IMG/VR virus record: IMGVR_UViG_3300045988_140747 | From: a virus | Length of the DNA stretch: 64,000 bases | Strand: one strand, 5' to 3' | Part shown: piece by piece, positions 12,419-31,924 of the stretch | Position numbering within the stretch: the stretch's first letter is position 1 | Layout of the letters: the number at the start of each line of letters is the position of its first letter | The notes under the pieces: model-generated | Told to the model about the DNA's origin: nothing | The model's input: only the letters and a program-made list of their open reading frames with translations | The model's database searches: none | Position numbers and translations under genes: made by a program

Positions 12419-12444
12419 CCCAAAGCCGTGGAAACACGGCACAT

Positions 12445-12534
12445 CGAGGATTCGCCAAGATGGTAATGCAGCGGAATTTGACTCCGCCAGTGCTGAATAA
12501 GCGATCGCAGGTTCGAGCCCTGCATCCTCGGCCA
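12445..12534 (+). tRNA. Atypical tRNA, anticodon TTG (Gln) with a 19-nt variable region
   Basis: Acceptor cgaggat/atcctcg, Gln-like D arm tcgccaagatggtaatgca, anticodon stem gcgga/tccgc with loop atTTGac, extra segment cagtgctgaataagcgatc, T arm gcagg-ttcgagc-cctgc, G73 and CCA. Confidence 0.5.
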
Positions 12535-12557
12535 TAAAAGCAATCTGGAGGTCGTTC

Positions 12558-13187: not shown

Positions 13188-13846
13188 AAGTTCTTGTTAT
13201 CGCACCTCACCCTGATGACGAGATTCTCGGTGTTGGCGGAACGATAGCAAAAAGGGCTGCTGTCGGCGATGAAGTTACCGTGTGCATCTGTACAAAGGGC
13301 GTACACCCTATGTTCGATCAAAAGATTATTAAAGCTGGACGTGATGAAGCCAGAAAGGCTCACACATACCTTGGTGTCTCAGAAACCATATTTCTGGATC
13401 TTCCTGCTGCAGAGCTTGATAGTCTGCCTATGACTGATATCGTGGGAAGGCTCGAGAATGTGGTTTGCGAAACACGTCCAGATGAGATTTTCATTCCTCA
13501 TCATGGTGACATCCACAATGACCATAAGGCTATCTCTGCTGCCGCGATGGTTGCTTTGAGGCCGAAACGGTTCAAGAAGCCTGTTCGCATTCTCAGCTAT
13601 GAGGTTCCGTCTGAGACAGGATGGGATACTCCTACTCCAGAAAATGCATTTAGCCCGAATGTATATGAGGATATCACCGACACAATCGGAAAGAAGCTCG
13701 ACGCTGTTCTTATATACAGATCGCAAGCTGAACAGTGGCCGGGCGCTCGTTCCGCGGGCGCTGTTGAAGCTCTTGCAAAATATCGGGGATCTACCGTCTG
13801 CATCCCTTACGCCGAGGCATTTCAGCTTGTAAGGCAGACACTGTGA
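13184..13846 (+). CDS. PIG-L/LmbE-family de-N-acetylase
   Basis: VLVIAPHPDDEILGVGGTI and the HGDIHNDH metal-site motifs. Confidence 0.75.
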   Translation: MKVLVIAPHPDDEILGVGGTIAKRAAVGDEVTVCICTKGVHPMFDQKIIKAGRDEARKAHTYLGVSETIFLDLPAAELDSLPMTDIVGRLENVVCETRPDEIFIPHHGDIHNDHKAISAAAMVALRPKRFKKPVRILSYEVPSETGWDTPTPENAFSPNVYEDITDTIGKKLDAVLIYRSQAEQWPGARSAGAVEALAKYRGSTVCIPYAEAFQLVRQTL

Positions 13847-13873
13847 CCAACATCTAAAGAAGAGGGTTCGTCA

Positions 13874-14527
13874 ATGGAAAAACGAATTGAAGTTTGCAAG
13901 ATGAGAGCTGGAGATATCAAAACCGGCTTCGGGAATCCCAGAAAGATCAGCAACAAAAAAATGGATGAGCTCGAGCAGAGCATGAGCACCTTCGGAGATT
14001 TCGGGATTTTCCTCATCGACGAAAAGAACAACGTCATCGGCGGAAACCAGCGGTTGAAAGTTGTCAAGAAGCTTTATGGCGAAGATGCCATGATTGATTG
14101 CAAACGGCTCATCGGATATTCTCAATCCGAGCTCAAGGCGATCAACATCAAGGACAACACACACTCTGGTGAATGGGACCTTGACTTGTTGGCTGACTGG
14201 ACTTCTGAACTCGTCATGGACTTCAGCGTTGAGGCCGAGGAGAAGAAGCAGATCGAAGAGCGCGAGATCCCGGAGATGGAGCTTATCCACTACGAAAAGT
14301 ACGATTATGTCATGATCGTATGCAACAACGAGCTGGATTACAACAATCTGGTGAGAGCACTTGGCATCGAAGGCAAGAAAGTTCGGATTTCCAAACGCAA
14401 GATCAACGCGCGTGCGGTCTGGTATCACAAGATGAAGGCGAAGGTCATTCCTTACGATGAACTTCCTGAAGAACTTCTTGATGATTCTGACATCAAGGCA
14501 AGGGATGGCGGTGGCGAAGATGAGTAA
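13874..14527 (+). CDS. ParB/Srx-like N-terminal-domain protein
   Basis: GFGNPRKIS (box I-like) and VIGGNQRLKV (GxxR box II-like). Embedded between sugar-modifying enzyme genes. Confidence 0.5.
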   Translation: MEKRIEVCKMRAGDIKTGFGNPRKISNKKMDELEQSMSTFGDFGIFLIDEKNNVIGGNQRLKVVKKLYGEDAMIDCKRLIGYSQSELKAINIKDNTHSGEWDLDLLADWTSELVMDFSVEAEEKKQIEEREIPEMELIHYEKYDYVMIVCNNELDYNNLVRALGIEGKKVRISKRKINARAVWYHKMKAKVIPYDELPEELLDDSDIKARDGGGEDE

Positions 14528-15143
14528 CAATACTCTCGTTATCCTTGGTGCCGGCCAGCAGGGAAGAAACTGCCATAGACTGGCTCCCATCAACGGTTAT
14601 CAAACGGTTGCCTTCGTCGATGATTTCATCACTGACCCAGTGGAAGACATCCGGGTGTATAGCAAGATCGAAGATATTCCGGATTTCATGGATCATAAGT
14701 ACATCGTTGCTGTTGGGGATCTTGCGGTCAGAAAAAAGTTCATTGAGCAGATCAATCTGCTTGGCCTTGAGTGCGCAAACCTGATTGATCCCACCGCTGA
14801 TATCGAACCCGGAGCCAAGATTGGAACTGGCAACTACATCTACAAGTTCGCCAGCGTGTATGCTTCGGCCACAATCGGAGACCACAACATTATCAATTGC
14901 AAAGCTGTACTTGCTACCGACAGCGTTATTGGCAACAACTGCAATATCTGCATGGGAAGCAACATCTGTGGCGCGGTTCATGTAGGAGACAATAGCTATA
15001 TTGGGTACAACGCAACGGTCGTCAGCGGGAACAACGTGGGGGCGAACGCCACAGTGGAGGCTGGATCTGTGGTTATGGAGGATGTGCCGGACTGGCTCCG
15101 CGTTTCTGGTATTCCGGCTCGAGACGCCGAAGAACTGTGGTAA
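14520..15143 (+). CDS. NeuD/PglD-family acetyltransferase, copy 2 (paralog of 12558-13187)
   Basis: LVILGAGQQGR plus hexapeptide repeats. Roughly half the residues are identical to copy 1 by eye. Confidence 0.7.
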   Translation: MSNNTLVILGAGQQGRNCHRLAPINGYQTVAFVDDFITDPVEDIRVYSKIEDIPDFMDHKYIVAVGDLAVRKKFIEQINLLGLECANLIDPTADIEPGAKIGTGNYIYKFASVYASATIGDHNIINCKAVLATDSVIGNNCNICMGSNICGAVHVGDNSYIGYNATVVSGNNVGANATVEAGSVVMEDVPDWLRVSGIPARDAEELW

Positions 15144-15158
15144 ACGTAGAGGTGTAAT

Positions 15159-15875
15159 ATGGAAAAGCCAGATATTTTCGGAATCTACATTCCGAGCTAT
15201 AAGAGATCTGATACGATTACCACTCATAAGCTTCTCGAATACTACAAGGTTGTTATTCGCCAGAGCGAATATGAAGACTACCTCAAGACCATCCCTGCAG
15301 AAAACATCATTGCCGTTCAGGACGATCTTATCGATAGCGTTCCGAAGGTGTGGAACTGGATCATCGACAATGCAGAGGAGGACTACTTCTGCATTATCGG
15401 TGATGATGTTCCAAGGTTCTACTACCGGCTTGAGAAGAGCGAGGCCATCACAGATCCTGAGATTATCACTTCTGAGATAGAGCGAATCGGCCAGCTTATG
15501 ATCGATCTCAATATCGGATGGGGATGTGATGATGCCACCAACGTGCCTTGGGGATACGATGCTGAGTTCACGTTCAAGGGGACTACCGGCGGAATCAACT
15601 GGATTAACAGGAAGAAGCTCAAGGGAAGGTTCAATGCGGAAATCGGATACTGCTGCGATACCGATGTCGTTATGCAGGAACTTCTGGTAAACCGGATTAT
15701 TCTCAAACCCAAGTATTTGTGTCCCGGCGGTGGAGCTGACAAAAACAAAGGCGGCAACTCAAAGAAGAGCCGAGAGAGTATGATTGCCAGCTTCGAACTT
15801 ATGAAAACGAAGTGGGGCAAGTATTTCGACTACGACCTGAAGACCAACAAGATCTATGTGAGGGTTCCGCGATGA
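15159..15875 (+). CDS. Putative GT-A-like glycosyltransferase
   Basis: N-terminal beta-strand motif GIYIPSYKRSD and a DxD-like CIIGDDV about 80 aa later. No closer family recognised. Confidence 0.35.
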   Translation: MEKPDIFGIYIPSYKRSDTITTHKLLEYYKVVIRQSEYEDYLKTIPAENIIAVQDDLIDSVPKVWNWIIDNAEEDYFCIIGDDVPRFYYRLEKSEAITDPEIITSEIERIGQLMIDLNIGWGCDDATNVPWGYDAEFTFKGTTGGINWINRKKLKGRFNAEIGYCCDTDVVMQELLVNRIILKPKYLCPGGGADKNKGGNSKKSRESMIASFELMKTKWGKYFDYDLKTNKIYVRVPR

Positions 15876-16555
15876 CCGATGTAAGAGTGTTCTCAGGCCA
15901 TCAGCCAAACTTCCTTCCATACATGGGCGTGTTCTACAAGATGTACCGTTCCAACGTGTTTGTCTTGGATGACGATGTGCAGTATTCTAGGGATGGACTT
16001 CACAACGCCAACTTTATCAAAGTGAATGGGTCTAAGCACAGGATTACCGTGCCGGTCAAATACAACTTTGGAGATCCGATCAACAAGGTTGAGATATGCA
16101 ACGACATGGATTGGGCTGGCAAGATGCTCAAGACTATGAAGTGCGCTTATGCAAAGGCTCCGCATTTTGAAGAAGGATATGGGCTCTTGGAAAGGCATTT
16201 TCAAAACATGCCAACCCGCTTGTCGGACTTGAACATTGGCCTCATCCGCGAAATCGCAGATAGATTCGGGATGACGTGCAAAATTGTCGTTGCCAGCGAA
16301 TCTGTTCCTACGGATCTCAAGAAGAACGAAAGAAACCTCTACCAATGCATCACCCTCGGGGGAAGTGAGTACCTGTCAGGAGAGGGAGGAAGGGTATACA
16401 ACGACGAAGAGCTGTTTGCTGGGCACGGGATCGACGTGAAGTACTCCGATTATCATCCACTCCATTACAGGCAAGTCGGTAGGGAGTTCATCGAGAACTT
16501 ATCCGTTATTGACTACATTTTTAATGTTGGATTTGCGATTCCTGAAGAATGGTGA
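15872..16555 (+). CDS. WbqC-family protein
   Basis: HQPNFLPYMGVFYKM at the N-terminus and LSVIDYIFNVG at the C-terminus match the WbqC-like pattern. ATGA overlap with the upstream gene. Confidence 0.6.
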   Translation: MTDVRVFSGHQPNFLPYMGVFYKMYRSNVFVLDDDVQYSRDGLHNANFIKVNGSKHRITVPVKYNFGDPINKVEICNDMDWAGKMLKTMKCAYAKAPHFEEGYGLLERHFQNMPTRLSDLNIGLIREIADRFGMTCKIVVASESVPTDLKKNERNLYQCITLGGSEYLSGEGGRVYNDEELFAGHGIDVKYSDYHPLHYRQVGREFIENLSVIDYIFNVGFAIPEEW

Positions 16556-18760: not shown

Positions 18761-20163
18761 ATGCCACAGATCCTGAAGCCGCAGGAAGGACCTCAGACAC
18801 GGTTCATGTCTACCCCCGCGAGCATTTGTATCTATGGCGGCTAGGAGCAGCCGGCGGAGGGAAAAGCTTTGGATTGCTCATGTCTGCCCTTCGGTACAAG
18901 AACGTGCCCGGGTTTGGCTGCACCATATTCCGAAAGAACTTCAACCAGATATTTGCACAGGGCGGTCTGTGGGATGAATCCATGCAGATCTACCAAGACG
19001 TCAAGGGAGCTTGTCCCAAGTTCGCTCGAGGGCAATGGTTGTTCTGCAATGACAAAGGTGAGGTTTTATCAAAGGTCACGTTTGCTCATATTGAGAAGGA
19101 TGAGGACGTCCATAAATGGCAAGGCTCTCAGATCTGCGAATTGGGATTTGACGAGCTAACTCATTTTACCGAGAAAACGTTCTTCTATATGCTATCCCGT
19201 AACCGATCTGCCTGTGGTGTTGAGCCATTTGTCAGGGCTACATGCAACCCTGATGCGAATTCATGGGTGGCAAAGTTCATTGAGTGGTGGATCGATCAGG
19301 ATACTGGATACCCAATCCCTGAACGGAGTGGGAAGATTCGATGGTTTATCCGCCGGGATGAAGTGCTCTACTGGGCTAATACCCGGCAAGAGCTCTGGAA
19401 AAGATTCAATCTCACTACAGAAGAGGAGAAAAGTGAGCCAAGGTCTGTCACGTTCATAATGTCTAAGTTGAGCGACAACAAGGAACTTATGAAGGTGAAC
19501 CCGGGCTACCTTGCAAACCTAAAGGCGCTGTCTCAGATCGAGAGAGAGCGCCTTCTTTATGGAAACTGGAAGATCAAGGCCGCTGCTGGTCTCTACTTCA
19601 AGAGATCACAGCTTGGAGAGATTCTCAATAGTGTCCCTGCGGATGTCATCCAGTGGGTAAGATGCTGGGACTTGGCTGCTACGGAAAAGGACGACAAGGG
19701 AGACCCGGCATATACTGCTGGCGTCCTTATGGGAAAGCGGAAGAATGGACGATATGTCATTGCCAACGTTGTCAACAAGCAGATGTCCGCATCTGATGTC
19801 CGAAAGACCATCAAGCTCACGGCACAGTCTGATAGAGCTGCCTATAAGCGAGTCCGAGTTCGATTGCCACAGGATCCCGGACAGGCCGGTAAGGAACAGG
19901 CGGAGTCCTACATAAAGTTCTTGGCCGGCTTTGATGTTACGACTGTGGCAGAAAGCGGAACCAAAGAGGCAAGAGCGGAGCCAATGGCTGCACAATGGCA
20001 GGCTGGAAACTTCGACATTGTATACGGCGAGTGGAATGAAGAGTACCTGCTTCAGCTTGAAAACTTCCCAGATGGAAAGTTCAAGGATATGGTCGATGCT
20101 TCCGCAAATGCTTTTGCAGAGATCGAATCCAGATGCGCATTCAACCTCAGCAACCTGATTTGA
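18761..20163 (+). CDS. Terminase large subunit, apparently split by a frameshift at ~18842
   Basis: RBS plus ATG 18761 gives MPQILKPQEGPQTRFMSTPASICIYGG and then TAG. The -1 frame continues (L)GAAGGGKSFGLL (Walker A), LGFDE (Walker B) and nuclease-domain acidic residues through to 20163. Confidence 0.8.
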
Positions 20164-20189: not shown

Positions 20190-23100
20190 GTGGATAAGAT
20201 GACACAAGAGGATCGCATCAAGCACTATGCGCATCTGATTCAGCGTCAGACTGGCAAGGCTGTGCGACCGTACCGTGCTGACGGATACGTCAACATGGTT
20301 AACCGGTATGGCACATCGAAAGATTCGTCCGAGCAGTACAACTTCGTACCGGATGCGCCGGTTGCTGACGATGTGCTTGAAATGCACTATGAAAACAACG
20401 GCCTGTTTTCCAAAATCATCGATATGCCGGCAGAGGAAGCCATCAAGCACGGCTTTACCATCGAAGACGTAGAGGACGGAAAGCTGGCTGACTTCTACAG
20501 CGAAGCTCTCGACGAACTCAACTGGGAAGAGAACGCCATGACCGCCGTTAAGTGGGCAAGACTGTTCGGCGGCTCCATTGCCATTATGCTTGTGAACGAT
20601 GGTCGTGGGCTCGAGGAACCTCTCGATTGGAAGAACATTCAATCCATTGACGATATCCGAGTGTACGACAGATCGCTCATTAGCCCTGACTACAGTAGCG
20701 TGTTCAACTACGATCCGCAGGATCCATTCCGAGTTCGCGGCAGTCGGCTTGGTATGCCCGAATACTATGATGTCTATAGCAAGTATGGATCATTCCGAGT
20801 ACACGACAGCAGATGCCTTGTTTTCCAAAACGGCGTCCTGCCTGAAAATGCAACTAACTCCATCTACCAGTTTTGGGGAATCCCGGAGTACATCAGGCTG
20901 AACAAGGCCATCCGGGATGCGGACATTGCACACCGCAGCGCACCCAAGTTGCTGGAACGGTCTGTGCAGCCCATCTATAAGATGAAGGATCTCGCGGCTG
21001 AGTTGGCTACAGAACAGGGCGAAGACCGCATTCTCAAACGTCTGCAGGTTATCGACACTGCACGAGGAATCCTCAACAGCCTTGTCATCGATGCCGATGG
21101 CGAAGACTATGACTTCAAGACGTTCCAGTACAACGGTATCACTGACGTTATCAGTGCATCCTGCAATATGCTCGCTGCCCTGTCCAATATTCCACAGATC
21201 ATTCTGTTTGGGCAGACCATCAGCGGAATGAGCAGCACTGATGACACCAGCATGGAGAACTACTACAACTACGTTGAGCGCATTCAGAAAAGGATGCTGC
21301 GGAGTAATCTCCGATATCTACTGTCTGTTGTTTTTCAAGCCGGCCTTGCAACCGGAGAGGTTGATGAAGTCCCAAAGCTGAAGGTTCAGTTCAATCCTCT
21401 GTGGTCTGTCAGCGATTCCGACCAAGCAACTCTGGATCAGCAGAAGGCCCAGACCGAGCAGATCAAGGCGCAGACTGCCCAGATCTATGTCGGTATGGAA
21501 GCCATTGATCCCAGCGAGGTTCGTTCCAAGCTTGCAGATAGCGATGACTTTGATGTCGAGAATATGCTTGATGAGTATACTGAAGAGGAACTCGAAGCTG
21601 GAATGCCAAGCAATGATGAGAGCCAAGAGCAAACGCCTGATGATGGACAGCCTGCTACTCCTGATTCTCAACCTACTGGAAATGATGAAAAAGCCGGACC
21701 TGGTCAGCTCCTGAACGAAAAGACTCTCTCTGCTGTTGGAAACAATGCAAAAGATCCTGCCACCATGGAGACTAAGGTTAGCTCCGATCCTCATGAAAAC
21801 AAGGAAGGCACTGAAGGTGATGCCCCTGCATCCGCCCCTGCTGCGACGAAAAAGCCTTCCGACATGGACCCTGAAGAAAAGGCCAAAGCTGCACAATCGC
21901 GCCAAAACAAGGCAAAAGACCGGGAGGACTCACTTCGTACCGATGACAACAATTCTCACTCCGAAGATCAAAAAGGCTCGGTGGGCGTTATTGTGGTCAA
22001 TGGGGGCAGAGTCCTGAATGGTACTCGGCACAACGATTTTGGCTACGGCCTTGTCTGTGGCCCCGGCGGTCACATTGAAGAAGGTGAAACTCCGGAACAG
22101 GCTGCATTCCGAGAGACCAAAGAAGAATTCGGTATTACGCCCAAAAGCCTTATGTGCCTTGGACAAGGGCCTAAAGAAAAAGATACCGGCCTGAAGCCGT
22201 ACCTGTTCCTGTGCACCGAATACTACGGCACTCCGAACTGCGAAGATCTCGAGATGACCGGCGCCAAGTTCAGTACCATTGAGGAATTGAACGAAAAGGC
22301 CGAATCCTTGTTCGGCCCGTTCGCAGACGGCCTGAACATCCTGATGGACTGCCTTGAAACCGGCATCTTCTATACAGACCCAGCGGAAGGCGTAACTGGC
22401 GAGAAACTGAATTCTCATCTGGAAAAGGCTATGAATGCCGATGGAGGTCAAGGATCTGGCAATTTTGGACACGAAGGAAGGCCAGGAAAAGTAGGAGGAA
22501 GCGCCGAGTCGCACAACTTTGGAGGGCTCAAAAACAGCGAGCTTTCATCTAAGATGAATGGCGTGTTCGATGATGCAAAGATAGGAACTCGCTTTTCCGT
22601 AAAGATGAACGGCGTTGCCGGAAAAGATGATTATGAAATCTATAAAGTTTCAGATGGATTCTACGTTCGGAGCAAAAAAGGCGGAAACGATATTGTCAAA
22701 TCAGTTGACAAGCTCGTCGAGAATTGCGGTGTATACGTCACAAATCTGACCTCTGACAAGGTCATGTATAAGGAAGCCAACATTGAAGTTGGTGAACCCG
22801 AAACAGAAGAAGCACAAAGTTTTACTAGAGCATACGAATCTTGCAGAAAGGAAAGAGAGCGACTTGCATCTGGGAATTATAAAATCACTGAAGTTGATGA
22901 TGCTACCGCAAAAAAGTATGCTGACACTTTGAACAAAGCAAGCAAGGCAAAAATCGCAAAACTTGCTATTGATGACCCACAGTTCAAGGCTGTTGTTGAT
23001 AACATTTCTGCGTATACACAGGGAGAATATGTATATCAGCGAAAAGCGACTGAAAAATTCATCAGCAACGGATATGACCCATCTAACGATGCAATCCTCG

Positions 23101-26100
23101 GAGATCGACTTACCGATTCTTTGTATTTATGCAAAGACATGTACAAGGGACAAAATCTTTCCGTTTCCAGTGCAAGTGTAACGGAAGGCATGGCGAACTT
23201 GACAAAGGCTGTGAATTGCTCCGATCCGTTTGACGGAGAGCTGTACCGAGTTGCTCAGGACAGAAGCCTGATGAAAACTGCAGACTCTGGAAACCAGGGA
23301 GTATACACTCCGCCAAAACCCGGAGAAACAATATCCATAGTTGCTCCTACTTCGTTCTCAAAGGACAAAGCGGCTATTGATAAGATTGCCAAAGATAAGT
23401 CCGGTGATATCATCTATTACACTGTTCAACCGGGTGCTCATGCCGTAGATGTATCAAAGCTGTCACCGTATAAGCAAGCTGAACTCCTTACCTGCGGAGA
23501 ATATGAGGTTGTCAGTGTTGATTCCAAGCCTCAGAGAGTTGTTATGACTCAGATCGATCGTTTCACAAGTGAAACAATCGATTCGCTGAAGGCCAACAGA
23601 GGGGCAACAGTTGACGACGGTTTTGTTAAATTTCCAATCCTTGAAACTCATGTGACTCTTCGCCAGAAAGAACCTATTCACATGGATTCTTGCGATGATA
23701 GCATCCACAGATACAGACCCGACGATTTTTCCGAACGGATGGTCTATGATGACGAGATTGATCTCGATGGTGGCCCAGGGTCTGGGAACTATGGGCACGA
23801 GGGCGTTCCGGGGCAAGTGGGCGGAAGCGCCCCTAGCACAAGCGGTCCGATTTCCAAAAGTAGCTTTCAGAAGGGCTCTGGTCACTTTGAAGTAACTGGT
23901 GACGTGAAAGATATGTATCTCACAAAGCCGGCAAGAACCAGAATTGAAGGGGCTATTAAAACGGTGAAAACCGCTAATGACCTCAAGAAATATCTTGAAA
24001 ATCAAGGAATCAAGCTTGAAACGTCTTATGAACCACTCAAGAAAGCGATGGATAGAGAGATCCCGTCCATCAAGGAGCAGGCTGATTATGTGATTGCCGC
24101 TATTGAGCAGTACAAGGATCTCGGTGGGCTTAAAGCGCTTAAAGCGGTTCACATCTATGACCATGATATTGATGCACAGGCGCAGTACAGCTATCGCGCA
24201 AAAGGGGAAGGTGATGTTCCAGACGAGGGACATTTGTATATCAGCTACATGGCTAATGGAGAGCAAATTATGCATGAGTTTGCTCACGCCTATGCTGACT
24301 CCACAAAGCCTGATGGAATGGATGTTGTCGAATGGTCAGCGAAGCTCAACCAAGAAGCAGGCCTTTCGAAAAACGTAAAATCATACTTCGGCGCGGACAG
24401 CGATGCTAAAGAAGCTGAGCGTTTTGCCAATGCGATTGGGTACGCAATTGCGGATGGAGATGGACCGGATGGCCGACTTGCATTTGCTGCAAATGTTGCG
24501 AATATCGTAAGAAATTCCAATGGATCGTCCGCAGGAATGTCCGGCGGAAACCTTGCATTTAGAAGCATGATTCCGAAAGACAGCTACTTCAACTCTCCAT
24601 CCTACAAGAAGGCTGTTGAAGCCTACCGCGGAGCCATCAGAAAGCATGACGATGCATGGAAGAAATATAGCGACCTCAAGGAAGATCTCAAAGCAGAGTC
24701 CGCTCCGAAGCCTGAATCTGAATGGGATGATAACGACATCTTCGAAGATCTCATTGGCCATCGTCCCATGACCTACACAGAAAAAGGCAAGAAGATCAAG
24801 TCTGAGATGGACAAAGCCTTCAAGGATTCACAGGAATATGACCATGAGCAGACCGAGACTGGCGACAAGCTTCGCGAGATCAAGAAAAAAGAGCATGACA
24901 AGCAGGTGAAGGGCATCCATTTCCAACCGCCTGCTGATGCCTCCTCCGATGATTATGAGGGCTTTACCACTAAGACCACCGGAACGTCCGCCTATGATGA
25001 CTACATCAACGGAGAAAGGAACGGAGGCCGAATTGCAGAGATGTCCCCGGCGGAATATCTTCAAAGATGCGCCTATCAGGTCTTTGAAGATGCTACCATT
25101 GAGTCCACTCTGGCTGCTATCGATGAGTCCAACGTTAAGAAGTATGCCGATATGATGAAGAATGGCACAAAGTTTGACATGCCGTATCTCAATTTCATGT
25201 CTGGTCAGCAGGAAGGACGGCATCGAGCCGCTGCTGCCATGCAAGCTGGTATCGATAAGATCCCTGTGCTTGTGGTCGGAGAAAGGTTTGCCAAGTATGA
25301 CGGAGGAAAAGGCTCTGGCAACTGGGGCCATGAAGGCCGAAAAGGGAAGCTCGGTGGATCGGCCCCCGGCGGAGGCGTGCACAACCGGATTTCCGAAGAG
25401 GGCGGATCCTACACCTCATTCTCAAAGAAGCAGAAGAAACTTGCCACAACGCACTTTGCCGGCAAGGGGGAATTTCACAATCTCCCGGACAAGACTAAGA
25501 TTGTTGCCGATCTTGTGTTTGGACCGTACTCTATGGTCTATAACGCCAAGCATGGCATGTTCATCGGCGAAGACGGTGCCGAAATGAACCCGGATGATGT
25601 GACAGACGCTTGCGACAAAGACACTCCTGTTCGAGTGTTCATTCCGAATGAGGCGAGCACGAACTACAACAAGCTCAAGCAGTCCTTTGATGTTTCCCCG
25701 TCCAGAATGGCTGAAGCAAAAGCCTATTCACAGCCAAAGCAAGCCGACAAAGACCTCCGAAAGAAAACCGGAGAGGTGTGGAAAACGCTTACTGATGGTC
25801 AGAAAAAGTCACTTTATGATTATACCGGCGGCTTTTTTATGGACATCAACCACTCCCTGAGAAGTGGTCATGGAACTGTGCAGAACCAGTCCAAGGCCTC
25901 TGACATCACGACCGCCATAGCTAAGAGCAAAACTCAAGAGGATATGTGGCTGTATCGAGGAGTTGGCTTGGAGGCTGTTCCTAAGATGTTTGGTATTGAC
26001 TGGGGAAAAATACAGAAGAATGACATTGGTTCTATTGTTGGAATGTCCGGCTCTGACGACGGCTTTATGTCGTGCGGTACAACTGCTGGCACTGGATATG

Positions 26101-26369
26101 GAGACGTAACCGATGTCAACATGAAGATTTTCGTTCCGAAGGGGTCTGAGGCTCTATACGCAGAGCCGTTCTCAAAGTATGGAAGCAACCCGGATGCCAA
26201 GAACTGGAACGGCGAAAGCGATCAGACCTATTTTTCCTCCGAAATGGAGACTATCTTGCAAAGAGGGTCTCATTTCCAATGCACAAAAGCCTACTACGAT
26301 GAGGACAAAAAGAAATACAGTATCGAAGTGGCTGTCACCGGACAAGAATACAAGGAGCTCAATTGGTGA
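20190..26369 (+). CDS. Portal protein (DUF1073-type) fused to a polyvalent effector array: Nudix, ART-like, zincin, ParB-like, C-terminal ADP-ribosyltransferase
   Basis: A single ORF is open 20133-26369, with a likely GTG start at 20190 after GGAAGGAG. It carries the Nudix box GGHIEEGETPEQAAFRETKEEFG, HEFAH, QQEGRHRAAAA, and the ART triad LYRG / FMSCGTT / SEMETILQRG. Confidence 0.75.
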   Translation: MDKMTQEDRIKHYAHLIQRQTGKAVRPYRADGYVNMVNRYGTSKDSSEQYNFVPDAPVADDVLEMHYENNGLFSKIIDMPAEEAIKHGFTIEDVEDGKLADFYSEALDELNWEENAMTAVKWARLFGGSIAIMLVNDGRGLEEPLDWKNIQSIDDIRVYDRSLISPDYSSVFNYDPQDPFRVRGSRLGMPEYYDVYSKYGSFRVHDSRCLVFQNGVLPENATNSIYQFWGIPEYIRLNKAIRDADIAHRSAPKLLERSVQPIYKMKDLAAELATEQGEDRILKRLQVIDTARGILNSLVIDADGEDYDFKTFQYNGITDVISASCNMLAALSNIPQIILFGQTISGMSSTDDTSMENYYNYVERIQKRMLRSNLRYLLSVVFQAGLATGEVDEVPKLKVQFNPLWSVSDSDQATLDQQKAQTEQIKAQTAQIYVGMEAIDPSEVRSKLADSDDFDVENMLDEYTEEELEAGMPSNDESQEQTPDDGQPATPDSQPTGNDEKAGPGQLLNEKTLSAVGNNAKDPATMETKVSSDPHENKEGTEGDAPASAPAATKKPSDMDPEEKAKAAQSRQNKAKDREDSLRTDDNNSHSEDQKGSVGVIVVNGGRVLNGTRHNDFGYGLVCGPGGHIEEGETPEQAAFRETKEEFGITPKSLMCLGQGPKEKDTGLKPYLFLCTEYYGTPNCEDLEMTGAKFSTIEELNEKAESLFGPFADGLNILMDCLETGIFYTDPAEGVTGEKLNSHLEKAMNADGGQGSGNFGHEGRPGKVGGSAESHNFGGLKNSELSSKMNGVFDDAKIGTRFSVKMNGVAGKDDYEIYKVSDGFYVRSKKGGNDIVKSVDKLVENCGVYVTNLTSDKVMYKEANIEVGEPETEEAQSFTRAYESCRKERERLASGNYKITEVDDATAKKYADTLNKASKAKIAKLAIDDPQFKAVVDNISAYTQGEYVYQRKATEKFISNGYDPSNDAILGDRLTDSLYLCKDMYKGQNLSVSSASVTEGMANLTKAVNCSDPFDGELYRVAQDRSLMKTADSGNQGVYTPPKPGETISIVAPTSFSKDKAAIDKIAKDKSGDIIYYTVQPGAHAVDVSKLSPYKQAELLTCGEYEVVSVDSKPQRVVMTQIDRFTSETIDSLKANRGATVDDGFVKFPILETHVTLRQKEPIHMDSCDDSIHRYRPDDFSERMVYDDEIDLDGGPGSGNYGHEGVPGQVGGSAPSTSGPISKSSFQKGSGHFEVTGDVKDMYLTKPARTRIEGAIKTVKTANDLKKYLENQGIKLETSYEPLKKAMDREIPSIKEQADYVIAAIEQYKDLGGLKALKAVHIYDHDIDAQAQYSYRAKGEGDVPDEGHLYISYMANGEQIMHEFAHAYADSTKPDGMDVVEWSAKLNQEAGLSKNVKSYFGADSDAKEAERFANAIGYAIADGDGPDGRLAFAANVANIVRNSNGSSAGMSGGNLAFRSMIPKDSYFNSPSYKKAVEAYRGAIRKHDDAWKKYSDLKEDLKAESAPKPESEWDDNDIFEDLIGHRPMTYTEKGKKIKSEMDKAFKDSQEYDHEQTETGDKLREIKKKEHDKQVKGIHFQPPADASSDDYEGFTTKTTGTSAYDDYINGERNGGRIAEMSPAEYLQRCAYQVFEDATIESTLAAIDESNVKKYADMMKNGTKFDMPYLNFMSGQQEGRHRAAAAMQAGIDKIPVLVVGERFAKYDGGKGSGNWGHEGRKGKLGGSAPGGGVHNRISEEGGSYTSFSKKQKKLATTHFAGKGEFHNLPDKTKIVADLVFGPYSMVYNAKHGMFIGEDGAEMNPDDVTDACDKDTPVRVFIPNEASTNYNKLKQSFDVSPSRMAEAKAYSQPKQADKDLRKKTGEVWKTLTDGQKKSLYDYTGGFFMDINHSLRSGHGTVQNQSKASDITTAIAKSKTQEDMWLYRGVGLEAVPKMFGIDWGKIQKNDIGSIVGMSGSDDGFMSCGTTAGTGYGDVTDVNMKIFVPKGSEALYAEPFSKYGSNPDAKNWNGESDQTYFSSEMETILQRGSHFQCTKAYYDEDKKKYSIEVAVTGQEYKELNW

Positions 26370-26401: not shown

Positions 26402-26430
26402 TTGACAAAACAGAATGTATCTGTTACGAT
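26402..26430 (+). promoter_or_regulatory. Sigma-70-type promoter, copy C of the conserved phage promoter
   Basis: TTGACA, 17-nt spacer, (tgt)TACGAT, then TTTGTAAAAAA. Confidence 0.6.
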
Positions 26431-26467
26431 ACGTTTGTAAAAAACATCATGTTCTAGGAGGGATAAA

Positions 26468-26695
26468 ATGGCGAAATGGGACAATGAAGAACTGTCGTGG
26501 GTACGGCCTGACAAGAATAAAATCCAATGTTCAAAGTGCATGCTGCGAGAGAAGGACCGACTGGACGGAGAAATCGACGGGGCCACACTTGGTGTGTGTG
26601 AAGCCTTCCAATTTAAGCCGACGGAGATTCTTTTCAACGGCGCTGAGTGTCCGTATTTCATTGACGAGAACACGCCAGACGACGAAGAAGAGTGA
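26468..26695 (+). CDS. Hypothetical small protein (75 aa), acidic tail
   Basis: AGGAGGG RBS; CSKC...C...C. Confidence 0.45.
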   Translation: MAKWDNEELSWVRPDKNKIQCSKCMLREKDRLDGEIDGATLGVCEAFQFKPTEILFNGAECPYFIDENTPDDEEE

Positions 26696-26710
26696 CTTGA
26701 AAGGGAACAG

Positions 26711-27529
26711 GTGGCAGGATTGAAGAACACCAATCGAATCATCGGAGGAATCGTTGGCGATATCGTCGGATCTGTATATGAGTTCGACAATATCAAGTCC
26801 AAGGACTTCGTTCTGTTTGGGGATCATCACGGTCAGAAATGCTTCGCAACCGATGACAGCATAATGACTCTGGCGGTTTGCGATGCGTTCACCAAGAGTG
26901 CTCCGTACTACGAATTCCTTTACGAAAACCTCATGAAGTCCATGCAGGAAATCGGAAGACCGTATCCGGATTGCGGATACGGAGGAAGATTTTATAGCTG
27001 GATGTACTCTGATAACCCACAGCCGTATAACAGCTTTGGGAATGGCGCTGCGATGCGCGTAAGTGCTGCAGCATACGCTGCGAATACGCTCTCTGAAGCT
27101 CTCGACTTCGCAAGAATCACTGCAGAAGTCACCCATAATCACCCTGAAGGCATCAAGGGCGCACAGGCTACTGCTGGATGCATTTACCTTGCGCTTCATG
27201 GATATGACTTCCGAAAGATCCTGCGATTTGCCGATCACTACTATGACCTAGACTTCACCCTTCACGGTATCCGTGACAGCTATCGGTTCAATGAGTCCTG
27301 CCAGGAAACAGTTCCACAGGCTATTGTCGCTTTCCTTGAATCCACTGATTTTGAGGATTCAATCCGCAACGCGATTTCCATTGGCGGGGACAGCGACACA
27401 CTGGCCTGTATTACTGGATCTATTGCCGGAGCCTACTATGGTGTTCCCGTAAACATCGCAGATAAGGCCATCGGATATTTGGATCCTCGCCTCCGTGAAA
27501 TCTACGATCGGTTTGTTGAAGAGTTCTGA
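26711..27529 (+). CDS. ADP-ribosylglycohydrolase (ARH/DraG family)
   Basis: GGIVGDIVGSVYEF, TDDSIMT, FGNGAAMRV, THNHPEGIKGA and GGDSDTLACITGSIAGAYYG. GTG start. Confidence 0.8.
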   Translation: MAGLKNTNRIIGGIVGDIVGSVYEFDNIKSKDFVLFGDHHGQKCFATDDSIMTLAVCDAFTKSAPYYEFLYENLMKSMQEIGRPYPDCGYGGRFYSWMYSDNPQPYNSFGNGAAMRVSAAAYAANTLSEALDFARITAEVTHNHPEGIKGAQATAGCIYLALHGYDFRKILRFADHYYDLDFTLHGIRDSYRFNESCQETVPQAIVAFLESTDFEDSIRNAISIGGDSDTLACITGSIAGAYYGVPVNIADKAIGYLDPRLREIYDRFVEEF

Positions 27530-27920: not shown

Positions 27921-28856
27921 GTGAACAATAAAATTCACCAAGAAGCTGTCAAACAGGCCACACAGGCCAAATTCCGCGGCAAAAAGACCATCAAGTGCAA
28001 AACCAAACCATTATACCCGGAATCTGCCGAACGAGAGTATGCCCGAGTTACAAACGGCTACATGAAAATCCTCGACGATACTGTCAAGAAGCACATGCCA
28101 GCTATCATGAAAGCATACAAGGCAGATCTCGATGCAAGCATCCGAGAAGATGACATCCATGATGTTTTCGACAAAACCCGCCGGGAATTCCAAAGAATGG
28201 CTGAAGAGCTTGAACGGAAACTTGCAAAGTATGGGCTGCAGAACCTCGTTGGCAAAGTCGCTCGCGTCGCAAGAAAGAGCTCATATAGGCAGTGGAAACG
28301 GGCCTGCAAGCAAACTCTCGGCATCGACCTTATGGACGATTACTACAACGGAGACTTCTATCGGCAAGCTGTTCAGAAATGGGTTGACGACAATGTCTTG
28401 AAGATTAAGAGCCTTCCGAATGACTCTCTCGGGTCAATGCAGCAGATTGTCTATAAGGGTTTTCAAAGTGGTGCAAGCGTCAGAGACATCTCGAAGGAGA
28501 TTCAGGACGAGTACCAAACATCCAAGCATCAGGCACAAATGCTTGCTAGGGATCAGCTGTCCACCCTGAATTCTCAAATCACCCGACTTCAGCAAGAGGA
28601 TGCCGGCTGTAAGCGATATAGGTGGTCAACGTCCAAAGACTCCCGAGTCCGGGACTGCCACAAGTCCTTCGAAGGAAAAGTGTTCAGCTGGGACGACCCA
28701 CCTGAAGGATGGTATAAGACCAAGAACGGAATCAAGTACACTGGACGAAGATGCCACCCCGGGGAGGACTACATGTGTAGATGCGTAGCGATCCCCGTTT
28801 TCGACTGGGAAACCATAGACGTCCCTATGCAGACTGATGGTGAAAAGGAGAGCTGA
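27921..28856 (+). CDS. MuF / SPP1 gp7-like head morphogenesis protein
   Basis: C-terminal YRWSTSKDSRVRDCHKSFEGKVFSWDDPP...HPGEDYMCRCVAIPV matches the Phage_Mu_F pattern. GTG start. Confidence 0.7.
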   Translation: MNNKIHQEAVKQATQAKFRGKKTIKCKTKPLYPESAEREYARVTNGYMKILDDTVKKHMPAIMKAYKADLDASIREDDIHDVFDKTRREFQRMAEELERKLAKYGLQNLVGKVARVARKSSYRQWKRACKQTLGIDLMDDYYNGDFYRQAVQKWVDDNVLKIKSLPNDSLGSMQQIVYKGFQSGASVRDISKEIQDEYQTSKHQAQMLARDQLSTLNSQITRLQQEDAGCKRYRWSTSKDSRVRDCHKSFEGKVFSWDDPPEGWYKTKNGIKYTGRRCHPGEDYMCRCVAIPVFDWETIDVPMQTDGEKES

Positions 28857-29138: not shown

Positions 29139-30038
29139 ATGAAAAACACAATACAAGATATTCGAGAGAGACAGATGCTTCGAAGGAAAGCGATGGACAG
29201 CCGAAAGCTTGTTATTTTTCGAAAAGACGGTTTGCCGGTTGTTGTTAGCGAGGATGGAGGCCCGGGGTCCGGTAATTTCGGACATGGAGGGCGTCCTGGA
29301 AAGGTTGGCGGTTCATCTGGCGGAGAAGGCTCTAAAAGCGCATCTGCTCCCAGCAGTAAAGCACCAAAAGCCAAGACTTACAACAATGAGATATCAAAAG
29401 CGTATAAGTCGAAGAACTACGCAGATGTTGGCAAAGCAATTAGAAAATGCGTTACGGATGCACCTATCGGCTCGAAATTCACCTCAAACGGAAACTCCTA
29501 CACCAAAACAGGAGACGATACATTCGAGTATACAATCGCTTCGTTTCCGAATAAAAAGTTTCCTGCCAATACGAACATGGTTGTAAATAACGCCGACTTG
29601 TTCAAATCCGAAAACGCTCTGAAGTTTGAAGAAAGTGAAGAAAAAGCATCGAAAGCCAGTGAAGAACAGGCATCCGCTCCGCAGAAAAAAACTTCAGATA
29701 AAGAAACTTCGTCCCGAAAGCCGACCTTTAGCGGAAGCAAAAAGACCGAAGGAATTCGTTCTTTTGGTGGCATCAAGTGGAACGAAAGAAATGAAATTCT
29801 CGAGAAAGCCCCAGTTGGAGCTAAAATCGAAGGAATTGTCAGCAATTCCGGGCGCCCGGTTGTCATTGAAAAGACGAGCGGTATTGTTTCCAAAACGTCT
29901 TATTTCGGAGACATCTTCAAAGAGAAGGAGGATTACTGGGAAGTCAACGGAGAAAGGGCTAACGGAAGCTCGCAGATTGCTGAGATTATTGGTCAGACTC
30001 TGAAGGGCACGAGCAAGTACTACAAGCTGAAGGAATAA
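29139..30038 (+). CDS. Lys-rich hypothetical head-module protein carrying the DGGPGSGNFGHGGRPGKVGGS motif
   Basis: This is the fourth copy of the 21-aa motif (29253-29315), placed 38 aa from the N-terminus. The remainder is unrecognised. Confidence 0.5.
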   Translation: MKNTIQDIRERQMLRRKAMDSRKLVIFRKDGLPVVVSEDGGPGSGNFGHGGRPGKVGGSSGGEGSKSASAPSSKAPKAKTYNNEISKAYKSKNYADVGKAIRKCVTDAPIGSKFTSNGNSYTKTGDDTFEYTIASFPNKKFPANTNMVVNNADLFKSENALKFEESEEKASKASEEQASAPQKKTSDKETSSRKPTFSGSKKTEGIRSFGGIKWNERNEILEKAPVGAKIEGIVSNSGRPVVIEKTSGIVSKTSYFGDIFKEKEDYWEVNGERANGSSQIAEIIGQTLKGTSKYYKLKE

Positions 30039-30083: not shown

Positions 30084-30368
30084 ATGCAAAATTCTGCGGC
30101 TGTAGGTAGTATCTGCGCACAACTTATCAAGTCGTGCGAGAAGGTTCAAACGATCACATCGGCTATGGATGCTTTTGAGCAGACTAACGAGAAGCTCGTT
30201 GAATCTTATGGGAACATTCGGTTTGACGAACTCGAGCACATCCAGATTCTCACGCTGATGCTCACGGAGCTTGTCTCCGTTGAGAACGAGGAGAACATGG
30301 ATGGAGAGGGGAGCGTATTTGCCCCCGGAGATCTCAACGACGTAAAGAAATGTGAGGGCGAGGAATGA
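30084..30368 (+). CDS. Hypothetical protein (94 aa)
   Basis: In frame with track ORF 30075-30368. ATGA overlap with the downstream gene. Confidence 0.4.
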   Translation: MQNSAAVGSICAQLIKSCEKVQTITSAMDAFEQTNEKLVESYGNIRFDELEHIQILTLMLTELVSVENEENMDGEGSVFAPGDLNDVKKCEGEE

Positions 30369-31924
30369 CAAGAAATACCGAAAATGCACCGCCCAAGCTT
30401 TCTAGGGTCTACCGGCTCGATAGCTCTCCTGTGAATTCCACCTATTTCACTGAGGAAGGTTATCTGATCGACCACCCGATTCTGACAAGCATCGGAATCT
30501 TCGAATACACGAACCCTGACGGAACCACTCGCAGGGAACTGCGAATTCCTGAAGAGGTTTTTAAGCCTGAAAGCCTCAAGTCCTATAAGGGTAAGCCTAT
30601 CATCGTGACTCATGATGCCGGGCTTATCACCAAGGATAACGTTGGCGAAGAGGCAATCGGAACAATCCTGTCTGAAGGATACCAGGACAAGGATGACGTC
30701 CGAGCCGAAATCATCATCCATGATACGGATGAGATGAAATCTGTTGGGTTGAAGGAGCTGTCGCTCGGCTATAACCTCACGCTCGATGAAACGCCGGGCG
30801 TGTGGGAAGGCAAGCCGTATGACGCTATTCAGCGAGATATTACCATCAATCACCTTGCGCTGGTTCTTCAAGCGAGAGCTGGCGACCAAGCACGGCTTAA
30901 CATCGATAGCCGTGACCGCACTACGAAAGGAGTAAAAACCACCATGAGCAAGAAGATCAAAAAGTTCGGCTCTCGCGCCGACGGTGTTCTGAGCCCCGAA
31001 GAGCTGCAGAAGGCAATCGCCGACTACAAGAAGCGCCGCGCAGAGCGCATCGAGGGTCAGAAGGATGCAGATGACGTTGCTCCTGCAGAAGCAGAGAACA
31101 AAAAGCCTGCTGCTGTCGAGACCGACGGAGATGAGACTGCTCCAACTGGCGCTGACGACCAGAAGAACGCAGTTCAGGCTGTCAAGGACCGCCGCGATCG
31201 TCGCGATGAGGAAGGCGACCCGAAAGATAAGGATGCCGCAATGGGCGTTATTGCCCAGCAGGATAGCGACATGGATATCCTGTTTGACATCATCGACACC
31301 CTGCTGGCCGAGCGCGACATGAAGACTTCCGCCACCGATGGAGAGGAATGCGATCCCGAGGATCCCAACACCGACGCCGATGACGAGGAGAACAAGCCCG
31401 CATCTGCACTGGCTGCGGTCAACGGCGATGAGGACGAGGACGAGGATGAGGATCTCAACTCCGACGAGGATGATGAAGAGGAAGTCAATGCCGATGAGGA
31501 CGACGATGAGGTGCCTTCCACGAACGAGGGAGATGTCGGCAGCGCTGTCGTCAAGGAACCCACTTCCAATATGGACTCTATCGATGCCATCGTTCGCCAG
31601 CGCGTCCAGCTCGGCATCGCAGGATCCAAGCTCGGCATCAAGGGCCTTGAGAACATGAAGCTGTCAAAGGCCAAGAAGACCGTCATTCGCGCAGTCAACC
31701 CCGGCATTCGTCTGGATGGCAAGAGCGATGCCTACATCAACGGCGCGTTCAGCTGCGCAATGGCTGCAATCAATGCTCCTGCAAAGAAGGGCATTGCCTA
31801 TCAGAAGAAGCAGATGTTCAACGGCGATTCCCGCGACTTTGCTTCTCGCACCACCAAGATGACTTCTGCTGATGCAGCACGCGCTCGCATGATCGAGCGC
31901 CGTATGAACAAGGAGGTAAAGTAA
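30365..31924 (+). CDS. DUF2213-type capsid scaffolding / prohead-core protein with long D/E-rich segment
   Basis: SIGIFEYTNPDGTTRRELRIPEEVFKPESLKSYKGKPIIVTHD...LSLGYNLTLDE...INHLALV matches the DUF2213 pattern. There is an acidic run GDEDEDEDEDLNSDEDDEEE. Confidence 0.6.
   Translation: MTRNTENAPPKLSRVYRLDSSPVNSTYFTEEGYLIDHPILTSIGIFEYTNPDGTTRRELRIPEEVFKPESLKSYKGKPIIVTHDAGLITKDNVGEEAIGTILSEGYQDKDDVRAEIIIHDTDEMKSVGLKELSLGYNLTLDETPGVWEGKPYDAIQRDITINHLALVLQARAGDQARLNIDSRDRTTKGVKTTMSKKIKKFGSRADGVLSPEELQKAIADYKKRRAERIEGQKDADDVAPAEAENKKPAAVETDGDETAPTGADDQKNAVQAVKDRRDRRDEEGDPKDKDAAMGVIAQQDSDMDILFDIIDTLLAERDMKTSATDGEECDPEDPNTDADDEENKPASALAAVNGDEDEDEDEDLNSDEDDEEEVNADEDDDEVPSTNEGDVGSAVVKEPTSNMDSIDAIVRQRVQLGIAGSKLGIKGLENMKLSKAKKTVIRAVNPGIRLDGKSDAYINGAFSCAMAAINAPAKKGIAYQKKQMFNGDSRDFASRTTKMTSADAARARMIERRMNKEVK

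Follow-up and report, generated by a model that had tools for sequence, protein, structure and literature searches.

A stretch of 64,000 nucleotides (nt) of viral DNA (IMG/VR record IMGVR_UViG_3300045988_140747; the whole stretch is referred to here as the window) contains an open reading frame (ORF) in which a phage portal protein is continuous with a long string of predicted effector modules. The reading that we favor, to which we assign a probability of roughly 0.6, is that this gene encodes a portal-anchored polyvalent protein, organized like a polymorphic toxin, that is carried in the capsid as a polyprotein, with its modules freed at conserved junctions and ejected with the DNA.

The portal-polyvalent gene lies on the + strand, as do all other features of the window discussed below, and runs as a single ORF without interruption to position 26369, starting either at a GTG codon at 20190 (2,059 amino acids, aa) or, as an alternative, at an ATG codon at 20133, from which residues of the fusion protein are numbered throughout. 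The GTG is preceded by a GGAGA ribosome-binding site (RBS) and follows the stop codon of the terminase gene by 27 nt, a spacing identical to that of the called gene in the relative L161. Because of this RBS and the L161-like spacing, the coordinates 20190-26369, which an earlier interpretation made from the sequence alone (the sequence-only reading) had given together with the claim of one continuous ORF, are considered correct. With the full protein as query, 268 homologues were obtained at E ≤ 1e-5, and these share a common plan of portal, Nudix and a variable C-terminal part; the best 120 of the 268 (1,130-2,090 aa) were listed, and the family counts given below refer to those 120. Homology extends over the full length of the protein, as in P0001 (cluster of 67 sequences), which is 92% identical across all 2,060 aa.

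The sequence-only reading had also raised the concern that the portal and effector parts might have been joined during assembly, and the homologues speak to this point. They come from many independent assemblies (Logan, ENA, JGI and NCBI), the fused architecture is also found in the complete genome of a cultured strain, Clostridiales bacterium CCNA10 (L125, AP018533), and a portal-Nudix fusion is present in the isolate Faecalibacterium phage FP_Brigit. Some of these modules are separate genes in relatives, as an artefact might predict, but with the same fusion in at least 120 listed proteins (268 matches) of independent assemblies, in a cultured-strain genome and in an isolated phage, a chimeric contig or a missed stop codon or frameshift that joined a portal to downstream genes can be dismissed with near certainty, and the portal-effector fusion is real.

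Along this ORF, the sequence-only reading had proposed a DUF1073-like portal, an acidic low-complexity spacer, a Nudix box, a zincin motif, a ParB/Srx-like box and two ADP-ribosyltransferases (ARTs), and scans with profiles and structural folds gave every proposed fold at least some support. The portal domain (Phage_portal_3/DUF1073 type; 20214-21632, aa 28-500) is recognized by Pfam Phage_portal_3 (aa 84-442, E 3.6e-72, 243.5 bits against a cut-off of 33.8, profile positions 5-355 of 357) and by PHROG portal family 15528 (aa 28-500, E 7e-182), and its score for NCBIfam TIGR01555 (159) falls below the equivalog cut-off of 196. It is followed by a low-complexity spacer of acidic, Ala/Ser/Pro-rich composition (21633-21962, aa 501-610), which has no junction motif; D, A, E, S, P and K predominate across aa 496-612, and conservation is poor beyond close relatives. 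The Nudix hydrolase module (21963-22439, aa 611-769) matches Pfam NUDIX (aa 615-720, E 5.9e-14, 52.7 bits against a cut-off of 21.1) and contains a complete Nudix box (nt 22068-22136; aa 646-668, G646-x5-E652-x7-R660-E661-x2-E664-E665-x-G667). The portal, the spacer and the Nudix box all stand as first read, and the portal is kept in 120 of 120 family members and Nudix in 118.

Module 2 (22503-23765, aa 791-1211) begins with beta-rich and helical parts and continues into the core of a predicted QxE-type ART (about nt 23175-23672). Searches of Pfam and the Protein Data Bank (PDB), by single sequence and by profile, gave no match for this ART. An AlphaFold2 model of aa 791-1213 (predicted local distance difference test, pLDDT, 82.6; predicted template modelling score, pTM, 0.76) was compared with the PDB by using Foldseek, which returned 53 matches at E ≤ 1e-3, and the 50 listed matches are all C3/VIP2-type ARTs, including Vis toxin (best, 3e-8), Certhrax, Plx2A, C3larvin, C3bot, Tre1 (6dre_B) and Lmo0066 (8za7_B). 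The predicted catalytic residues R1039, T1073-S1074 and Q1115-x-E1117 are invariant in 11 homologues (40-66% identity), and a homologue search with module 2 alone found four new proteins. The model, the fold search and the invariant residues thus confirm what had been a guess from the spacing of LYRV, APTSFS and KQAELL, namely that module 2 is predicted to be a QxE-type ART.

For module 3, as for module 2, sequence and profile searches of the PDB and Pfam gave nothing useful, and a structural model was required. The model of aa 1233-1724 is confident (pLDDT 90.3), and this region comprises two modules, each of which is also found independently in other proteins. The first, module 3a (23829-24512, aa 1233-1460), has an HExxH...ExE arrangement, with HEFAH at 24273-24287, and the residues H1381, E1382, H1385, E1427 and E1429 are invariant in 11 of 11 homologues. 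Its top PDB folds (PrpR, PprI/IrrE and M1 peptidases) are not significant (E ≥ 0.37), a BFVD entry named 'Metalloprotease' matches at E 2.8e-3, Peptidase_M78 matches are sub-threshold in six module 3a homologues, and there is no match to Pfam MPTase-PolyVal. The motif residues of the zincin claim are upheld, the support for its fold is weak to moderate, and module 3a is, with moderate confidence, zincin-like and probably IrrE/M78-like. Elsewhere, this module is fused directly to the C-terminus of MuF proteins of ~599 aa, there without a junction motif.

The remainder of this region, module 3b/c (24561-25298, aa 1477-1722), consists of a long helical part and a ParB/Srx-like domain, and no junction motif separates module 3a from 3b in this protein. 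The QEGRHR box (25209-25226, Q1693-R1698) is invariant in 17 of 17 homologues, and ParB/Sulfiredoxin entries recur among the BFVD matches (best E 1.1e-3, probability 1.0, with many weaker ones). The PDB matches to ParB-N are weak (E 2.5-3.9), an hhalign comparison with FP_Brigit gp22 (ParB-N) aligned the expected loop at a non-significant E of 0.16, and the fusion protein has no Pfam ParB_N match. Thus, the ParB/Srx-like box proposed earlier gains from its invariance and from the BFVD matches, and little from the PDB and hhalign comparisons; the assignment of module 3b/c as ParB/Srx-like is made with moderate confidence.

Module 4 closes the protein with an N-terminal domain (25362-25763, aa 1744-1877) and a predicted ExE-type ART (25764-26366, aa 1878-2078). 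The N-terminal domain accompanies the ART in relatives, as seen in P0003/4, in P0006 and in the free-standing leader-type genes of L042. The ART matches Pfam ADPrib_exo_Tox (aa 1878-2067, E 1.2e-20, 74.2 bits against a cut-off of 23.4), the PHROG family 'Bxa ADP-ribosyl transferase' and VIP2/C3-type ARTs in the PDB, and it has the full catalytic set (LYR1942G, S1980 and E2037-M-E2039), as expected if the C-terminal ART had been read correctly. The fusion protein thus carries two predicted ARTs, one of the QxE and one of the ExE type.

Most of these modules are separated by a junction motif of 21 residues, DGGxGSGN[FHWY]GHxG[RV]xGxxGGS. The three copies in the fusion protein follow DGGxGSGN[FYW]GHEG[RV]xGxxGGS and are found at the Nudix/module 2 border (22440-22502, aa 770-790, DGGQGSGNFGHEGRPGKVGGS), the module 2/module 3 border (23766-23828, aa 1212-1232, DGGPGSGNYGHEGVPGQVGGS) and the module 3/module 4 border (25299-25361, aa 1723-1743, DGGKGSGNWGHEGRKGKLGGS). 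A fourth copy (29253-29315) occurs in a separate 299-aa gene, where it follows a basic leader of 38 aa. A degenerate DNA pattern for the motif has 4 matches in the window, against 0.00 expected by chance, and synonymous differences among the four copies indicate that it is the peptide that is under selection. Among 164 distinct instances in the listed family members, 12 positions are invariant (D, G, G, G, S, G, G, H, G, G, G and G), N and the final S are present in 98%, and the sequence from N onward forms five consecutive G-X-Y triplets. The motif is present in 115 of the 120 members; portal fusions have 1-4 copies, placed at module borders, and the fusion protein of the window has none between portal and Nudix. 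In L125, an open frame of 990 residues, counted from stop to stop, encodes portal and Nudix with two copies of the motif. Because members that end after module 2 stop just short of where the motif would start, it can be assigned to the downstream cassette. No Pfam or NCBIfam model and no PDB chain was found to contain the motif, and no description of it was found in the open-access literature, including the paper on polyvalent proteins (Iyer et al., 2017; PMC5512222), so that it is apparently undescribed.

The motif is also found well beyond portal fusions. A scan of IMG/VR with the DNA pattern identified at least 115 motif-bearing stretches, and in about half of the 99 complete ORFs that they contain the motif lies 16-55 residues from the N-terminus, giving an order of leader, motif and cargo; in the remaining ORFs it follows a large carrier domain. 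The 42 proteins of this carrier type have Phage_portal_3 in 37 cases, DUF2213 in 1 and MuF in 0, with Nudix in 30. Genes of the leader type often occur several in tandem, and in free-standing cargo genes the motif near the N-terminus is sometimes preceded by only ~7-13 residues; their cargoes include ADPrib_exo_Tox (15 of 52) as well as Zeta toxin, DUF3626, PBECR3 and CdiA_C. Among 64 motif loci of at least 8 kb, 59 have homologues of the head genes of this window. Species-representative genomes contributed 44 motif matches, almost all from Clostridia (Oscillospiraceae, Lachnospiraceae, Christensenellales and others). The matches outside Clostridia (L122, L129, L146, L155 and L158) are in metagenome-assembled genomes labelled Chitinivibrionales, Elusimicrobiales, Succinivibrio, Gastranaerophilales and Eggerthellaceae, and reflect either binning contamination or a broader host range.

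When a profile of the motif was searched against 1.84 billion representative proteins, 4,048 cluster representatives matched at E ≤ 1e-3 and 716 at E ≤ 1e-10, the majority from prophages of Clostridia. Proteins contain up to 9 strict copies at a median spacing of 231 aa, and 90 of 145 have their first copy no more than 70 residues from the N-terminus. The domains in the top 30 matches (ART-PolyVal, 2H, ADPrib_exo_Tox, Zeta toxin, PI3/PI4-kinase-like, ParB_N, Fic, GNAT, Acb1 and one XkdF-type protease) are those of phage-type polyvalent proteins (Iyer et al., 2017). Nine strict copies, spaced by ~160-360 aa, are present in P0194 (2,011 aa), P0195 (2,217 aa) and P0215 (2,574 aa), which are extreme 'beads-on-a-string' polyproteins; in place of a portal, P0194 and P0195 have a short leader at their start, and P0215, with its first motif at aa 304, has 10 stretches matched by HMMER. 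Another stretch, L044 (IMGVR_UViG_3300021387_000484), encodes at 1853-7021 four tandem genes of 382-406 aa, each with a basic leader of 21-23 aa, a junction motif and an ART-type cargo that starts GKHNR or GEHNR...TSFS, and looks like a tandem array of free-standing packaged ARTs. A portal-Nudix-Gln_amidase protein (L163:4001-7432) has a degenerate copy, DGGPGSGNFNHGGRPGKVGGS, in which Asn replaces the otherwise invariant Gly before His, and the strict pattern therefore undercounts copies.

A second junction peptide, W[DN]E..HPRD..G[KR]F, is chemically unrelated and occupies the position of the GSGN motif. For example, FP_Brigit gp30 (L001:10900-11000) has a junction of this HPRD type between Nudix and its C-terminal domain (DFNEADHPRDENGQF), in P0137 the peptide (aa 38) stands after a leader and before module 3a, and in P0264 (aa 646 and 900) and P0341 (aa 29) HPRD peptides are mixed with GSGN motifs.

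Comparison of relatives shows that modules are gained, lost or split into genes of the leader, motif and module type. P0003/4 are without exactly module 2, the segment between motifs 1 and 2, yet they are 100% identical in module 4, and P0002 is missing only the zincin module. P0001, which is 99.5% identical in module 2, is 63-69% identical in module 4, with identity falling from 100% to 69% at motif 3. L042 encodes module 4 as a free-standing gene with leader, motif, N-domain and ART, plus a further copy of 49% identity that is flanked by MuF and the 299-aa gene, and in L163 (portal 91% identical) the portal protein ends in a Gln_amidase module and the ART is in a separate gene with leader and motif. 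According to precomputed Pfam annotations of the listed homologues, the variable C-terminal domains are ADPrib_exo_Tox, Ntox50, Gln_amidase, Zeta_toxin and the PF01129 ART. The family therefore has the constant N-terminal carrier and varying C-terminal toxin domains of polymorphic toxins, with Phage_portal_3 rather than MuF as the carrier.

The genes directly downstream of the terminal ART suggest how its toxicity may be contained. A 75-aa Cys-rich ORF (26468-26695) with an AGGAGG RBS lies between this ART and a gene for an ADP-ribosylglycohydrolase (ARH; 26711-27529; Pfam ADP_ribosyl_GH, E 5.7e-38), which also has sub-threshold matches to DraG and Tri1. A longer ORF of 102 aa (26415-26723), the longest in the interval that separates the polyvalent and ARH genes, is in the wrong frame: the conserved 75-aa ORF, which overlaps it, is 93% identical in L042, against 74.5% for the 102-aa frame. 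Homologues of the 75-aa ORF (38-100% identity) occur in 14 other loci and lie directly downstream of an ART-module gene in 10 of the 10 loci checked, and ARH follows the ART and the small ORF in eight loci (L161, L163, L042, L035, L092, L020, L016 and L052), whether the ART is portal-fused or separate. The relative L162, which ends in a Zeta toxin, has no ARH downstream and has three other small ORFs instead; judged by synteny, toxin and neighbors may co-vary, the 75-aa ORF accompanying an ART in at least 10 loci and ARH doing so in 8. This order of ART, small ORF and ARH is that of the Bxa-Bsi-BAH genes, where the ART of a prophage MuF protein is neutralised by a small binding protein and also by an ARH (Alexei et al., 2024; PMC11699363). 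From this synteny and analogy, the 75-aa ORF is a candidate structural (Bsi-like) immunity protein for the terminal ART, and the ARH a candidate enzymatic (BAH/Tri1-like) one.

These features can be combined into a proposed mechanism. Portal domains form a vertex of 12 subunits, and in solved portals the C-termini point to the capsid interior. The portal domain of the fusion protein would build such a vertex, and its C-terminal extension (~1,570 aa) would face the capsid lumen, with about 12 copies of each module loaded without a separate targeting signal. The extension is a string of cassettes (Nudix; QxE ART; zincin-like plus ParB-like; N-domain plus ExE ART), most of them introduced by the 21-residue motif, which may be a processing site at which modules are cut free inside the head, whether through a head protease or through self-cleavage; the freed modules would be ejected with the DNA. 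Once in the host, the two ARTs would modify host targets, Nudix might clear signals based on ADP-ribose or nucleotides, the ParB-like module might act on nucleic acids, and the zincin module on proteins. In the producing cell, judging from synteny and the analogy with Bxa-Bsi-BAH, the 75-aa binder-type protein and the ARH could hold the terminal ART in check, and genes with a leader, motif and cargo (here 29139-30038) may represent a non-fused version of the same delivery system. As for self-cleavage, a cyclisation of Asn at N-x-G-H is a speculative possibility, reminiscent of the NPTH autocleavage loop of FlhB/EscU.

Proteolytic release of the array is supported indirectly by the presence of a conserved motif at most module borders. 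MuF/gp7-type proteins, such as SPP1 gp7, are thought to leave the capsid with the DNA, and the portal stays in the virion. The motif is found after portal carriers and short leaders and is absent from the MuF fusions examined, and this distribution therefore fits a release function. A broader proposal, which we offer as tentative, is that the GSGN motif and the interchangeable HPRD peptides constitute an undescribed polyprotein processing signal of tailed phages, a junction that cleaves itself or is recognized by a head protease, by which phages of Clostridia would load up to 9 modules into the capsid, on a portal or behind a leader, and free them for injection. If true, bacteriophages would have their own equivalent of the polyprotein processing of other viruses, and the portal would be among the carriers.

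Several observations weigh against release at the junctions or complicate it. With 12 invariant and two near-invariant positions out of 21, the motif is far tighter than typical protease sites, and it could instead be a structural, binding or self-processing element. The borders between portal and Nudix and between modules 3a and 3b have no motif, so that release would not extend to all modules. The head would have to accommodate 12 copies of a 170-kDa extension (~2 MDa), which is plausible when compared with the load of P22 ejection proteins or T4 internal proteins. The module 2 ART in L162 has no obvious ARH partner. The zincin module, acting in cis, was rejected as a general processing enzyme, as it is found in 13 of the 120 family members, against 115 of 120 for the motif. 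Another candidate processing enzyme is the product of a gene of the DUF2213/Pa193_gp24 family (30365-31924; Pfam DUF2213, E 5e-30; PHROG 530), whose C-terminal half is extremely acidic and which is a putative prohead protease and/or scaffold. The names given to this family conflict, PHROG 530 being called 'head maturation protease' and the Pfam family being named after Pa193 gp24. A role as a protease is not established, and a cryo-electron microscopy paper on Pa193 describes gp24 as a putative scaffolding protein, seen under the five-fold vertices.

The strongest of the other explanations, although in our view an unlikely one, is that the motif is not cleaved and serves as a peptide for packaging or docking, or as a structured spacer. 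It would bind the capsid interior, the scaffold, MuF or the portal, in the manner of the cargo-loading peptides of encapsulins, and the array would stay attached to the portal and either work in the head or thread out via the channel while tethered. The very high conservation of the motif, with its five G-X-Y triplets, suits a binding or structural element better than a cleavage site, free-standing cargo keeps the motif close to the N-terminus (at times after ~7-13 residues), as a targeting signal could, and the association of 59 of 64 motif loci with head genes is also in keeping with such a role. However, a portal fusion needs no targeting signal, yet it has 1-4 copies at module borders, and proteins in which as many as 9 copies recur at regular spacing are easier to reconcile with junctions than with one address tag. 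In addition, if each of the 12 portal subunits kept its chain of 1,570 aa attached, the chains would be unable to work in the cytoplasm of the host.

Somewhat more doubtful is the view that the toxins are interbacterial or host-directed polymorphic toxins freed when a lysogen lyses, as has been proposed for Bxa, with the portal serving only as a carrier or a platform for co-expression. The conserved N-terminus and the variable C-termini (ART, Zeta toxin, Ntox50 and Gln_amidase), the immunity-like genes that adjoin the toxin, and the precedent of Bxa, with its antibacterial activity and immunity proteins, all accord with it. Set against this, an array that is fused to the portal ends up within a closed capsid, and Nudix, 2H, Acb1 and ParB-like domains are typical counter-defence domains that act in the infected cell (Iyer et al., 2017; PMC5512222). 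Release at lysis and injection are also compatible with one another, and immunity genes are needed during virion production as well.

It is improbable that the motif is mainly a recombination junction for the swapping of cassettes, like the VENN motif of CdiA, and has no biochemical role of its own. The breakpoints at which modules are gained, lost or replaced do coincide with motifs, and the family is mosaic at near-100% identity. The copies were considered as long DNA repeats for recombination and rejected as such: their DNA is only loosely similar, with synonymous differences, while the peptide is invariant. The unrelated HPRD motif takes the same position and is mixed with GSGN motifs in one protein, which points to a function at the level of the peptide.

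The genomic setting is that of a head module, in the order large terminase, fusion ORF, 75-aa ORF, ARH, MuF, 299-aa ORF, DUF2213/Pa193_gp24-family protein, cement protein and major capsid protein. The large terminase gene (18826-20163; Pfam Terminase_6N/6C; PHROG 979) is directly upstream of the fusion gene, which, between the terminase and the MuF, scaffold and capsid genes, has the position expected of a portal. MuF is encoded by a separate gene (27921-28856; 311 aa; Pfam Phage_Mu_F, E 1.4e-21) without an effector extension, so that the architecture first described, in which the array is fused to the portal and MuF stands apart, is borne out. The 299-aa protein (29139-30038), composed of the leader, junction motif 4 and a K/S-rich body, has no Pfam, PHROG or NCBIfam match, is kept in L042 and L161, and is a candidate free-standing packaged cargo protein. 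The source is best explained as a phage or prophage of gut Clostridia that resembles Brigitvirus. Positions 11498-16555, which immediately precede the packaging genes, encode a ThyX-like Thy1 protein (E 1e-46), a PglD-like hexapeptide acetyltransferase, a PIG-L deacetylase and WbqC (E 7e-58), along with a weak match to a TET-associated glycosyltransferase (TAGT, E 2e-5, under the cut-off); this cluster, whose genes are also present in L161 and L162, looks like a DNA-base hypermodification module.

Among cultured phages, no near-identical DNA was found; in protein-level searches, only FP_Brigit covers more than the portal, and three cultured phages match modules 2 to 4 weakly. The 'portal protein' gp30 of FP_Brigit (NC_047909) is the closest cultured relative, with 52% identity over portal and Nudix, the same order of head-module genes and an extra C-terminal domain after a conserved junction peptide. 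In contrast to the fusion protein, gp30 has only 828 aa, with one small extra domain and a junction of the HPRD rather than the GSGN type, and it is not followed by an ART, an ARH or the small ORF.

The T4 protein Alt and the capsid-targeting sequence (CTS) internal proteins are effectors, including an ART, that are packaged in the head and injected, and their short N-terminal leader is removed by the gp21 prohead protease. This removal of the CTS leader is the closest functional analogue of the genes with leader, motif and cargo. However, there is no sequence relationship, the T4 cargo is not fused to the portal, and the T4 cleavage sites are short (L/I-x-E) in comparison with a Gly-rich motif of 21 residues. 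The Tre1-Tri1 system, in which Tri1 is the immunity protein of a type VI secretion system (T6SS) ART, Tre1, and other ART-ARH pairs resemble the window in that an ART toxin is neutralised by an adjacent ADP-ribosyl(arginine) hydrolase; the ARH of the window is a sub-threshold match to Tri1, and the model of module 2 matches Tre1. Such toxins differ in being effectors of T6SS or other secretion systems, and are not capsid-borne.

MuF polymorphic toxins (Jamet et al., 2017; PMC5576092), including Bxa, are similar in their conserved head-protein N-terminus, variable C-terminal toxins and occurrence in temperate phages of gut bacteria. The likeness to Bxa-Bsi-BAH extends to the succession of ART, small non-enzymatic immunity gene and ADP-ribosylhydrolase and to the match between the ART of the window and the PHROG named for Bxa; Bsi and the 75-aa ORF are likened by their place in the gene order. 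Unlike in these systems, the carrier is the portal, MuF is separate and unextended, and there are several toxins or effectors per protein instead of one. Moreover, the MuF fusions seen here are without the junction motif.

Phage-type polyvalent proteins have been defined as having 2 to 15 distinct effector-type domains per polypeptide, and fusions of PBECR, 2H and InPase domains to portal domains were reported, e.g. BcepF1.124 (Iyer et al., 2017; PMC5512222). A survey of NAD and ADP-ribose systems added Nudix and ART domains fused to portal or MuF (Iyer et al., 2022; PMC9503650). The fusion protein has at least five effector-type modules besides the portal and is encoded among virion, portal and terminase genes, a location that implies packaging, as does its fusion to the portal itself. 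It shares with the reported proteins the presence of several unrelated effector domains, the location among terminase, portal and head genes, the prediction that they are packaged and injected, and a repertoire of ART, Nudix, ParB-like and metallopeptidase domains. The reported portal fusions are described as simple in architecture, whereas five or six modules are present here on one portal, the middle ones without a match to Pfam PolyVal/LPD models. Autoprocessing by MPTase was proposed in those papers, which do not mention a conserved junction peptide, and an immunity-like gene pair lies outside the concept.

Therefore, the portal-effector fusion as such is not categorically new, and the earlier claim that the combination is undescribed has to be narrowed in view of the fusions in the 2017 and 2022 surveys and the portal-Nudix protein of FP_Brigit. 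What appears new is the size and composition of the array, with two ARTs of different catalytic type, Nudix, zincin-like and ParB-like modules on a portal. The junction motif and its HPRD alternative, as a general feature of phage polyvalent proteins, also appear new, as does the portal-Nudix family as a polymorphic toxin family with Bxa-like immunity genes in phages of Clostridia. The junction motifs (three, and a fourth in a neighboring gene), the immunity-like pair and the cassette-swapping family all go beyond the sequence-only reading.

What is known of polyvalent proteins and MuF toxins comes almost entirely from comparative genomics, and the findings on this locus make the question of how such proteins enter the capsid and release their domains a testable one. 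The locus is an extreme case, as its carrier is the portal, which cannot leave the virion, and the conserved junction peptide, found in 4,048 protein clusters, can be tested as a release site. If the peptide is a signal for cleavage or self-cleavage, it would account for how a large class of phage effectors is processed, provide a rule for splitting uncharacterised giant phage proteins into functional modules, and possibly serve as a capsid-loading tag or a tool for protein engineering. In addition, the logic of a Bxa-type ART and its immunity proteins is extended from the MuF toxins of Bacteroides to phages of the Oscillospiraceae/Faecalibacterium type, which abound in the human gut.

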